From: Candidatus Jordarchaeia archaeon
GTDB taxonomy: Archaea > Asgardarchaeota > Jordiarchaeia > Jordiarchaeales > Jordiarchaeaceae
Assembly: GCA_029856435.1 (NCBI GenBank)
Contig: JAHQXB010000169.1
Location: forward strand, 1-17,786
Reading direction: 5' to 3'
DNA length: 17,786 bases
Shown: positions 5,916 to 10,293 of the stretch, piece after piece
Layout of the letters: each line of letters begins with the position of its first letter
Numbering within the stretch: position 1 is the stretch's first letter
Position numbers and translations under genes: made by a program
Notes under the pieces: model-generated
Told to the model about the DNA's origin: nothing
The model's input: only the letters and a program-made list of their open reading frames with translations
Databases searched by the model: none

Positions 5916-7076
5916 TTAATCGTAGCTATCTTTCCCCCTCTGTTCTAATAGTTTTCTAGCTCTCTCCTCTAGAATGGATGCAGGGATATCTGTTAGTGTT
6001 ATGACTGTTCTTCTACCTCTTTTGAGGTTTTTTACTACCGCATTGAACAATCCTATATCTGCAAGAACTCTAATATAATTTCTGAAGTTTCTTGTGGACC
6101 TCGGAGAAGTTTGGTATTCCTCACAAACGATGCGGTACTGTTCGTATGCCTTGTGAATTGGTACTGCAACCTCGTATTTTAGGGTGGTGGCTGTTGATAG
6201 TGCGGCAATTAGTTCGTGTCTATGTAACCCACGTAGTATTTCCGGAGAAGTTTCAGGATAAACTTCATTTTTCGCAATCCGTATCATCTCAGGGGTTATT
6301 TTTTTGTCTTCACTGTTTTCAGCTAAGTATCCTGCATGCCGCAAAATTTCTATTCCATGGCGAGCATTTCCGGTTTCACTTGCTATCTTTGCAACCATAT
6401 TACAATTTTCTCGAGAAAGTACGCCCTCATAGAAACTTAGAGACGCTCTGTAGGCAAGTATCTCCTGTAATTCTTGCTCGGTATATCTTAAAAATTCTAT
6501 TACAGAGTGAACATCTTCTATTAGGTGGGGGTATAGGTGTGCTACCCAATCCTCTGGCCTACTGATAATCAAAGTGCTTACCAAAGCGTTTCCATACCCA
6601 AAATACTCCGCACTGCGAATTAAGCCGTGTATTGCTTCCCCGCCTAAGAGTTTAGCATCATCTAAAGCAATTATGAGACGAGTATCTTCCCTCCTAAGTC
6701 TGTCATTTAATTCAATTATTAATTCGTTTCCAGTTATTCCCATAACTGGCACTTTCTTCCAATTTTTCATAATTATCTGTCTTAGAACAGCAGGTAAGGT
6801 GCGTACAGTACTGCAATACATGTATTCAAAAATTATTTTAGAACCAGACCGTCTAGCCATCTCCTCTATCTTTTGTCCAAACAATTTCGAAGTGGCTGTC
6901 TTTCCGAGACCCGCTTGCCCTACCAAGGCGCTATTTACGCTTACCAGTTTATCTGAAAACAGTGGACGATAAATACGCATTAACTGTTCCAACTGTTTCT
7001 CCCTGTGGGGAAGTAGGGGAGGTACATACTCGGGGAACAGTGTACTTTCATCTTTGAACACAGAGGATCTAATCAT
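5916..7076 (-). CDS. cdc6: Cdc6/Orc1 replication initiator, divergent paralog
   Basis: VFKDESTLFPEYVPPLLPHRE N-terminus, Walker A GQAGLGKT, Walker B IIALDD, sensor-2 GNAR and a C-terminal winged helix. Confidence 0.9.
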   Translation of the reverse strand: MIRSSVFKDESTLFPEYVPPLLPHREKQLEQLMRIYRPLFSDKLVSVNSALVGQAGLGKTATSKLFGQKIEEMARRSGSKIIFEYMYCSTVRTLPAVLRQIIMKNWKKVPVMGITGNELIIELNDRLRREDTRLIIALDDAKLLGGEAIHGLIRSAEYFGYGNALVSTLIISRPEDWVAHLYPHLIEDVHSVIEFLRYTEQELQEILAYRASLSFYEGVLSRENCNMVAKIASETGNARHGIEILRHAGYLAENSEDKKITPEMIRIAKNEVYPETSPEILRGLHRHELIAALSTATTLKYEVAVPIHKAYEQYRIVCEEYQTSPRSTRNFRNYIRVLADIGLFNAVVKNLKRGRRTVITLTDIPASILEERARKLLEQRGKDSYD

Positions 7077-7247: not shown

Positions 7248-8456
7248 ATGGAAGGACAAGCGGTGTCTAATATAGTGGAGGATGAGTTAAGCCGCCCATC
7301 ATCGATATTTAAGGATGAATCTAAATTATCTATTGATTACGTCCCAGAACACCTTCCACATAGAGAGAACGAGTTAAAACAACTTGCCCTCATTTTCAAA
7401 GTGGTCTTAGAGAGGCCGGGAAATAGTCAAAAGGTTATTATTACCGGAAATATAGGTACTGGGAAAACTGCTTTAGCTAAAAATTTTGGAAGCCAAATTG
7501 TGGCTATAGCAAACAGAAGGGGGATTAATATTCATTACATTCACATAAACTGTAGACGTGAGAGAACCAGTTTCGCCATTCTCAACAAAATAGTCAAAAC
7601 ATTCAATCCAAACATACCTAGACGAGGATTTTCCACAGAAGAACTATTTCAAATTATGAAGGAAGATTTAGAAGAGAAAAATGCAAATGTCATTCTCACC
7701 CTTGATGAGTTAGACTTTTTATTGAGAAGAGAGGGAGAGGAGCTTTTATACTCCTTAGTTAGACTTTTTGACGAGCAACTGAATGCGGTTCAGCGTCTCT
7801 CACTTATAGGGATAATGAGAAGCGAGGATCTATTTAGGAGTCTGGATTTAAGTATCATCAGCAGTCTACAAAAAAATATTATTCGCCTAAGGGAATACAC
7901 AGCAGATCAGCTTAAAACCATTCTGAGTGAACGCGCCAAAGAAGCATTTCATGTAGGCACTATAACCGATGAAGAAATAAAATTTATTGCGGATATAGCG
8001 GCGAAACAAGGAGACGCTAGATACGCTTTAGAGATTTTATGGCGCGCGGGAAAAATTGCTGACGCGCAAGGCATAAAACGTATCTTACCTGAGCATATAA
8101 GGGAAGCCAAATCAGAGATTTACCCTGTTATTCGAAAAGATGTTCTACGAGATTTGCCCTTTCAACACAAAGCGTTATTATTAGCAATTTCAAGAACACT
8201 TACCAAAGAGAGGGCATATGTAACAACAAGTGAAACAGAGAAAGTATACAAAATTGTATGCGAAGAATATAATATTAGGCCTAGAAGACATACTCAGTTC
8301 TGGGGATTTCTCAAGGAATTAGAAAAGCAGGGAATTATTGCTACAGAAATCTCTGGGAATGGGATGAAGGGGAAAACAACACTCATAAGCCTGCCAGATA
8401 TTCCTACCTCAATCTTAGAACAAGAAATATTGAATTTATTAGAGGGGGTCAGATGA
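7248..8456 (+). CDS. cdc6: Cdc6/Orc1 replication initiator
   Basis: IFKDESKLSIDYVPEHLPHRE, Walker A GNIGTGKT, Walker B LTLDELD, GDARYALEILWRA and winged helix YKIVCEEY..RPRRHTQFW...GKTTLISL. Confidence 0.96.
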   Translation: MEGQAVSNIVEDELSRPSSIFKDESKLSIDYVPEHLPHRENELKQLALIFKVVLERPGNSQKVIITGNIGTGKTALAKNFGSQIVAIANRRGINIHYIHINCRRERTSFAILNKIVKTFNPNIPRRGFSTEELFQIMKEDLEEKNANVILTLDELDFLLRREGEELLYSLVRLFDEQLNAVQRLSLIGIMRSEDLFRSLDLSIISSLQKNIIRLREYTADQLKTILSERAKEAFHVGTITDEEIKFIADIAAKQGDARYALEILWRAGKIADAQGIKRILPEHIREAKSEIYPVIRKDVLRDLPFQHKALLLAISRTLTKERAYVTTSETEKVYKIVCEEYNIRPRRHTQFWGFLKELEKQGIIATEISGNGMKGKTTLISLPDIPTSILEQEILNLLEGVR

Positions 8457-9465: not shown

Positions 9466-9500
9466 ATTTTATCCCATTCACAACCATTAAATTGAATACT

Positions 9501-9508
9501 TTTATATT
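9501..9508 (+). promoter_or_regulatory. TATA box of the RNase P RNA gene
   Basis: TTTATATT centred about 26 nt upstream of the predicted 5' end (9531), the usual archaeal spacing. Confidence 0.6.
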
Positions 9509-9530: not shown

Positions 9531-9927
9531 GGGTGATGAGCAGAAGGACGGCTGCCGGTGCCTCGCGGCGCTGAGGAAATCCATCCATCATGTGGGACTC
9601 GAGCACTGTAAAGTGCAGGCTGAGAAGCCTGGCAATGGAGCAGAAATCCTGCGAATTAAGGACTGCAAACGATACATCCATCTGAAGGATGACAATGATA
9701 CGGTCTTTGAACATAAAAATTAAAACACTGGAATATGTTCAAAAGCAAACCGCTGAGGATTCAGATGGAATTGTTGAAACGGCCATCCTCGAGGATGCAA
9801 GTCCAAATAGGCTACCCATGATTCCCACAAGAGGTAGCGGGTAGGACGCTAAGCTGAATGCCGTCAAGAGATTAAATGGTAACATTTATCTTTTAACAGA
9901 AGATGGATTACTCTCTGCACATCACCC
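9531..9927 (+). ncRNA. rnpB: RNase P RNA, archaeal type A
   Basis: Helices read directly. P1 GGGTGATG-A-GCAGA / TCTGC-A-CATCACCC; P2 GACGGC(9547-52)/GCCGTC(9860-65); P3 hairpin; P4 AATCCATC(9578-85)/GATGGATT(9902-09); P6 TGTGGGA(9591-97)/TCCCACA(9823-29); P7 CTCGAG/CTCGAG; P8 CACT-GTAA-AGTG; P9 CAGGCT-GAGA-AGCCTG; P12 TCCATCTGAA/TTCAGATGGA; P15 GTCC/GGAC with GGU in L15; P16 GCTACC/GGTAGC. Conserved motifs GAGGAAA, TTGAAACGG, GATGCAAG and AACAGAAG are present. Confidence 0.96.
9646..9668 (+). other. Candidate 23-nt BHB/BHL-type intron in RNase P RNA
   Basis: GCAG(9640-43)/CTGC(9663-66) 4-bp central helix, 3-nt AAA bulges 3' of it on both strands (9644-46, 9667-69), and an inner TCCT/AGGA stem. 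Excision restores GGAGCAGAAACGATAC. Confidence 0.7.
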
Positions 9928-10293
9928 CCAAACTCCATTGTCTCCTCATTTTGCTGTAAAAAGGATTTTATGGTTTGTCCAAGCGTTTTAGCATTTCAAC
10001 TTTTTAAGAAATAAGCCTAGTACATTTACAAATCTGGATTCTCACAAAAGTTTTCTCTAATACCTATATGATTGCATGGTTGTTTTCAACTCTTCACTTG
10101 CTATAAATGTTCAAGCAGAACCAATATGGAATGAGTTCTCCACAAACTCGCCAGAAAATATTTATGAATAGGTTGAAGGTAACTGTTCGGAGTAGTGTTT
10201 TATTCATTTTAATCAATGGTTATAAAATATCTTAGACGCCGCCCCGTTCTGTCGGTTCAACTTGCACTAGAACGTTTTGCGCCCAGTATTTGT

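Follow-up and report, generated by a model that had tools for sequence, protein, structure and literature searches.

The locus described here belongs to a universal ribozyme, RNase P RNA, and raises the question of why the gene carries a 23-nt block inside a conserved element, CR-II, and of what becomes of this block in the RNA. The gene lies in what we call the window, the whole 17,786-nt stretch of DNA from an Asgard archaeon of the Jordarchaeia (Freyarchaeia) that was analysed. A sequence-only reading of the window had proposed that the block is a tRNA-type intron of the bulge-helix-bulge (BHB) kind, lodged in a genuine RNase P RNA. The identity of the host is borne out by cmscan (Infernal), which matches positions 9536-9922 (+) to the archaeal RNase P RNA family, RF00373, with 172.7 bits against a gathering score of 84 and over the full model (positions 1-288). 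The gene is of the archaeal type A-like form and is best described as that of an intron-containing precursor. In the same alignment three long stretches exceed the RF00373 consensus. Two of them, an extended P12 and a hairpin (9866-9891), are at sites where the RNase P RNA family varies. The third is the 23-nt block, which Infernal aligns as a single insert between consensus ACAG and AAACGA, inside CR-II (J11/12), as had been claimed.

A possible TATA box, TTTTATATT (9500-9508, +), judged by its position alone, precedes the RNA start by about 30 nt. Contigs from RNA libraries span 9541-9928 and 9770-9927, which would put the 3' end of the RNA near 9927/9928. The long P12 (window 9696-9750) and the P15-like hairpin (9866-9891) are both present in the longer of these contigs, X1, and are therefore retained structural elements, not introns. 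The 5' strand of P4 (window 9573-9586) reads GAGGAAA-UCC and is 1 nt shorter than the Rfam consensus GAGGAAAgUCC; X1 has the same letters as the DNA here, and the sister family has GAGGAAAUUCC. Elsewhere in the window, two divergent Orc1/Cdc6 genes at 5916-7076 (-) and 7248-8456 (+) are about 170 bp apart, so that this could be a replication-origin region. Other neighbours encode a TtuA-like tRNA thiolase, aRF1, an ArsR-type regulator, Tsr3 and TiaS.

The insert is laid out as GCAG / AAA / UCCU-loop-AGGA / CUGC / AAA, then CGAUAC, with GGA (9637-9639) preceding GCAG. GCAG (9640-9643, +), which belongs to the exon and to the conserved letters of CR-II, is the 5' strand of a central helix, H, of exactly 4 bp, and pairs with probability 0.785-0.787 with the 3' strand CUGC (9663-9666, +), which belongs to the intron. 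Between them stand the 5' splice-site bulge AAA (9644-9646, +) and the inner hairpin, h' (9647-9662, +), formed by UCCU (9647-9650), the loop GCGAAUUA (9651-9658) and AGGA (9659-9662). At least 2 bp are expected of such an inner helix; UCCU/AGGA provides it here, and relatives have 2-7 bp. The 3' splice-site triplet, again AAA (9667-9669, +), leads on to CGAUACA and the P12 stem. The 5' triplet is closed by helices on both sides, and the 3' triplet opens into a junction or longer loop.

The observation first read from the DNA is confirmed: the letters are as given there, and RNAfold returns the predicted pairs. When positions 9630-9682 (53 nt) are folded, GCAG/CUGC is stacked over UCCU/AGGA and the first AAA is bulged. 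When the whole 393-nt precursor is folded, each of the eight pairs has a probability of about 0.78-0.79, both AAA triplets are unpaired, the 5' strand of P11 is found just upstream of the motif and a stem starts just downstream. By RNAfold the local structure has no exceptional stability (z = -1.64; 17 of 200 shuffled sequences do equally well). Thermodynamics alone proves nothing here; it is position and conservation that exceed chance.

Splicing of a BHB motif takes place in its two 3-nt bulges, each of which follows one strand of the 4-bp helix on the 3' side (PMC4090602). An outer helix, h, is absent from this example: A9639 faces C9670, as had been noted, and in both the local and the precursor fold the candidates for such a helix are limited to the 5' strand of P11 and a distal UCCAU. 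Since the outer helix is lacking, the motif is of the relaxed HBh'/BHL class described in PMC4090602 and not of the canonical hBHBh' form. Deletion of 9646-9668 gives GGAGCAGAAACGAUAC, which matches the GGAGCAGAAACGACAC of uninterrupted relatives, so the expected restoration of CR-II by excision holds. Deletions of 23 nt that start at 9644, 9645, 9646 or 9647 all give the identical product and, because the AAA repeat thus leaves four equivalent registers, the exact cut cannot be fixed from the sequence. Marck and Grosjean are said to have placed cutting, in 2003, after the second bulge nucleotide. By the BHB rule the 23-nt intron would be 9646-9668 (+), with both cuts falling within the AAA triplets. 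Likewise, the 5' exon would be 9536-9645 (+), comprising the 5' strands of P1-P11 and the first half of CR-II and ending in GGAGCAGAA, with a boundary that the AAA repeat leaves ambiguous over 9643-9646. The 3' exon, 9669-9922 (+), would carry the rest of CR-II (ACGAUAC), P12, CR-III and the 3' strands of the C-domain; it is contiguous in X1.

The class Jordarchaeia was sampled through 11 species genomes from one order and two families. All eight RNase P RNA genes detected among these genomes carry an insert at the CR-II site, as do five metagenome DNA contigs, found by a pattern scan, that are 86-97% identical to the window gene. The insert is 23 nt long in the window's genus, 15, 19, 19 and 19 nt in the sister family and 28 nt in one metagenome contig. 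GCAG, CUG(C/U) and both AAA triplets are invariant in 13 of 13 DNA copies; in two of these, G005 and metagenome contig L043, the 3' strand is CUGU and forms a G-U pair. The inner hairpin is variable: its smallest form is CC/GG around a GUAA loop, and its longest stem has 7 bp. Thus, length changes between 15 and 28 nt while the 4-bp helix and the 3-nt bulges are kept, the opposite of the pattern by which the sequence-only reading would have recognised a retained extra helix.

The same reading had looked to covariation of the two stems. In an alignment of 10 distinct sequences, 94.9% of cells are paired, against 14-38% with slid partners. The central helix is 100% paired, its first pair being GC in eight sequences and GU in two. 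One family closes the inner helix with U-A, the other with C-G. This double change is a single independent compensatory event that separates the two families, so the support that covariation lends is thin.

Outside the class, all 22 RNase P RNA genes read from other Asgard classes, which include equally intron-rich complete genomes of 2.8 Mb, are uninterrupted, with (C/U)AG followed directly by (A/C)AA(C/U)G. Many matches to a pattern with zero gap were also found among the metagenome contigs. All of them come from remote archaeal RNase P RNAs, similar to this gene over less than 45 nt, and none is a spliced copy from the genus.

A further observation comes from environmental RNA. Run X1 is a metatranscriptomic RNA-Seq library from a microbial mat, which was assembled as a 31-mer de Bruijn graph. 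It yields a single 364-nt contig (depth about 6) that spans 9541-9928 and lacks 23 nt at 9644, i.e. exactly the predicted intron. Compared with the window, it has in addition a 1-nt deletion at 9704 and nine substitutions, and all other inserts relative to the Rfam consensus are retained. Only the joined form was assembled, with depth 0 across the insert; being an assembled contig, it says nothing on the unspliced fraction of the RNA. It starts and stops at the ends of the RNA, and a second RNA run, X4, has the same 3' end; these ends argue for a transcript rather than contaminating DNA. X4 covers 9770-9927 only, a raw-read RNA run from a size-fractionated hot-spring sample (X22) contains no reads of the RNase P RNA and a contig run (X5) has nothing on this stretch, so that these three do not bear on the junction.

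The source of the X1 RNA is a near-identical strain and not the window's own genome, and the DNA with which it can be matched comes from elsewhere. The two closest metagenome DNA contigs, L034 and L036, share the 9704 deletion and six of the seven listed X1 substitutions, and the 23-nt insert is unchanged in both. That they are genomic DNA follows from their collinearity with the window, which extends over 5-6.6 kb to either side. X1 differs from them at 9738 and probably at a few further sites. The simplest reading of this comparison is that the 23 nt were removed at the RNA level, with the exons joined precisely, in a strain nearly identical to that of the window; the spliced junction that the sequence-only reading had proposed to seek in RNA is thus found in the X1 contig. 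The motif, its conservation throughout the class and the existence of RNA that lacks exactly these 23 nt are shown, and we regard it as very probable that the insert is a genuine archaeal BHB (tRNA-type) intron that is spliced out of RNase P RNA.

Could the insert instead be an expansion hairpin, a lineage-specific helix kept in the mature ribozyme, and the gene of the X1 strain simply be devoid of it? RNase P RNAs can accommodate many helices specific to a lineage, and this very RNA keeps its long P12 and the hairpin at 9866-9891. The 15-nt form of the sister family is a well-formed stem of 6 bp, bulged and capped by a GUAA loop, and could serve as a structural hairpin that stays in place. 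Moreover, X1 had to be compared with the DNA of other samples. Yet the insert is found in every one of the 13 DNA copies of the class, even in those that are only 85-87% identical and in the sister family. DNA contigs with the marker substitutions of X1 keep it, and the pattern scan of metagenome contigs recovered no genus-like DNA with the joined form. A retained helix would also sequester the GCAG of a near-universal motif, and it would give no reason for two 3-nt bulges at fixed spacing in an element whose length varies from 15 to 28 nt. This explanation appears improbable to us.

Still less credence is due to a technical origin of the gap, with reverse transcriptase skipping the hairpin or the assembler collapsing it. 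It is true that there is one contig of modest depth and that the gap is flanked by a 3-nt AAA microhomology, which can promote template switching. Against this, a 31-mer de Bruijn assembly is unable to collapse a 3-nt repeat, the joined form alone is seen in X1 and more stable hairpins of the same RNA were not skipped. Finally, what is missing is exactly what the predicted splicing would remove.

The genome (3.54 Mb in 181 contigs, 97.8% complete) contains two genes for the splicing endonuclease, EndA, on contigs other than that of the window. Near-identical EndA loci include one on CP147778.1, a complete chromosome from Freyarchaeia. The Tyr/His/Lys triad is present in EndA-1 (192 aa), which among proteins of solved structure is closest to the catalytic subunits of crenarchaeal heterotetramers, with A. 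pernix 3P1Z_B at 3.2e-45. The alignment with 3P1Z_B runs gap-free through the Crenarchaea-specific loop (QPLDVEKPRG), where EndA-1 has RKPK and its K47 stands opposite K44. In the A. pernix enzyme, K44 and the Crenarchaea-specific loop confer broad substrate specificity, and K44 is required (PMC3241643). In EndA-2 (197 aa), a Thr stands opposite the His that is catalytic in M. jannaschii EndA; the protein looks as a structural subunit would, and the two proteins may form a putative two-subunit complex. The EndA type, which the sequence-only reading had left to be looked up in the genome, is therefore that of a Crenarchaeota-like catalytic protein with the specificity-loop Lys and a paralogue without the catalytic His.

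Ligation could be provided by RtcB, the gene of which (G000:C93:302-1636, -) gives a full-length Pfam match of 579 bits. One in-frame TGA occurs within this match, and it may reflect selenocysteine or other recoding, which is reported for Jordarchaeia (PMC9723677).

That the excision is real but due to an agent other than EndA and RtcB, for instance another endonuclease acting on A-rich loops, might be suggested by the 3' site, which has neither a closed bulge nor an outer helix, and by the fact that the enzymes are known here from their genes alone. The geometry is nevertheless that of EndA substrates, a tRNA intron of the same genome shares the layout and the EndA has the loop associated with broad specificity. 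Non-canonical introns are cut only by (αβ)2 and ε2 EndA (PMC5829648), and their cutting by (αβ)2 enzymes is described in PMC4090602 as well. We thus hold another nuclease to be most unlikely, and take EndA and RtcB to be the probable processing enzymes. A self-splicing group I or group II intron is ruled out by the 23-nt size.

The tRNA intron just mentioned is that of tRNA-Val, which reads CGGU-AAA-UCCU-UUCU-GGGA-GCCG-AAU. It has the same architecture as the RNase P insert and is likewise situated between two different helices. Detectable tRNA genes are few for a 97.8%-complete genome of 3.5 Mb: ARAGORN finds three and Rfam seven (loci L158-L164, on G000 contigs C64, C94, C133, C110, C43, C125 and C106; 69-107 nt). 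Most of those detected have inserts in the D-loop, the variable region or the anticodon loop. Introns interrupt 92-95% of the tRNA genes of Freyarchaeia and Atabeyarchaeia, in many cases at non-canonical sites, and in the complete Freyarchaeia genome a single gene often has several (PMC11291895); the few, insert-bearing tRNA genes seen here agree with this figure. These statements draw on single examples and on that paper. A scanner that combined T-arms with the BHB motif returned only 20 T-arms and, for the most part, chance motifs, and was set aside as a source of tRNA introns.

How the RNase P RNA would mature can be sketched as follows. In a primary transcript of about 390 nt, the GCAG of CR-II would be sequestered by pairing with the CUGC of the intron. 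The 5' site would present itself as a strict H-B-h' half, and the 3' site would be embedded in the junction of P11 and P12. A two-subunit EndA would recognise both sites and cut both AAA triplets, and an enzyme of this type would be expected to leave 2',3'-cyclic phosphate and 5'-OH ends and to give rise to a circular intron. RtcB would then join the exons to give GGAGCAGAAACGAUAC, restoring the J11/12 module of the specificity domain. In RNase P holoenzyme structures, J11/12 and J12/13 form an interleaved T-loop module that contacts the tRNA elbow. For this reason the unspliced RNA is expected to bind its substrate poorly, and splicing would be needed for RNase P RNA activity; a regulatory use of this step is likewise conceivable.

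If so, the enzyme that trims the 5' ends of tRNAs probably needs the tRNA-splicing machinery for its own maturation. The dependency is one-way, EndA having no need of RNase P. One may go further and suppose that splicing is an obligatory and tunable checkpoint: since the unspliced ribozyme would be unable to bind the tRNA elbow, the activity of EndA and RtcB would set the capacity for 5'-leader removal, coupling two tRNA-maturation pathways, and the intron would be among the signs that tRNA-type introns have spread more widely among the essential non-coding RNAs of the class. This extension is speculative, and we are inclined to doubt it.

The kind of element and its mechanism, the archaeal BHB intron, are already known; the RNase P host RNA is new. 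Full-text literature searches that paired RNase P RNA with BHB, intron, splicing endonuclease or Asgard retrieved no description of a tRNA-type intron in RNase P RNA, and RNase P is nowhere mentioned in the paper on the intron-rich tRNAs of this lineage (PMC11291895). Should the present case be confirmed, RNase P RNA would join the hosts of archaeal BHB introns as a new class, and 5' tRNA processing would depend on the tRNA-splicing enzymes. It would also mean that introns have spread to other essential RNAs in an Asgard lineage in which nearly every tRNA gene is interrupted, which bears on intron proliferation. There is a practical side as well: with inserts of this kind covariance models score lower, and the non-coding RNAs of these genomes can be missed or misannotated.

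The SRP RNA of the class deserves separate mention. Two Jordarchaeia genes for this RNA have inserts in the apical loop of helix 8, the SRP54-binding site: 32 nt in G005 (L167:1604-1635, -) and 24 nt in G006 (L165:1730-1753, +). They have a relaxed BHB-like layout, CGGG / AGA / hairpin / CCUG or CCG / AUG or ACG. Their removal leaves CCCGGGAGGG, a GGGA-loop hairpin like the GCCGGGAGGC of an uninterrupted Asgard relative (L166). Judged from the genes, the SRP RNA of these relatives is a candidate for another essential non-coding RNA that contains a tRNA-type intron. The SRP RNA model gave no match in the window's own genome.

Several known systems offer points of comparison. Retained helices of RNase P RNAs, such as the variable P12, P15-P17 and those affected by type M and type T reductions, are like the 23-nt block in being insertions relative to the family consensus. 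However, their sites are variable regions and they persist in the mature RNA, whereas the block interrupts CR-II and is absent from the X1 contig. Closest of all are the non-canonical HBh'/BHL introns in the pre-tRNAs of Thermoproteales and of Freyarchaeia and Atabeyarchaeia (PMC4090602, PMC11291895), which have the same 4-bp helix, variable hairpin and short length (15-28 nt), with an unpaired triplet 3' of each helix strand. The lineage setting, with a putative two-subunit EndA that carries the specificity loop, is also the same, and the tRNA-Val intron of this genome has the same layout. What differs is the host, here the RNase P ribozyme, and the location of the 3' site in the P11/P12 junction of a 390-nt RNA.

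The BHB introns of crenarchaeal rRNA are removed by the same machinery as tRNA introns. Those of 16S and 23S rRNA, together with the BHB processing stems of pre-rRNA (PMC10515664), are likewise examples of a tRNA-type motif in a large non-coding RNA. In contrast to the RNase P intron, with its 23 nt and no coding capacity, rRNA introns are usually hundreds of nucleotides long and often encode homing endonucleases. The permuted SRP RNA of Thermoproteus is matured by BHB cleavage and circularisation. It is an essential non-coding RNA that depends on EndA-type processing, as RNase P RNA would, with a permutation there and a simple cis intron here. Finally, the intron in the cbf5 pre-mRNA of Crenarchaeota (PMC2738675) is processed by the enzymes of tRNA splicing although it is neither tRNA nor rRNA, and it too is restricted to a clade, with both gain and loss. 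Splicing of cbf5 restores the reading frame of an mRNA, whereas splicing of RNase P RNA would restore a conserved RNA tertiary module.
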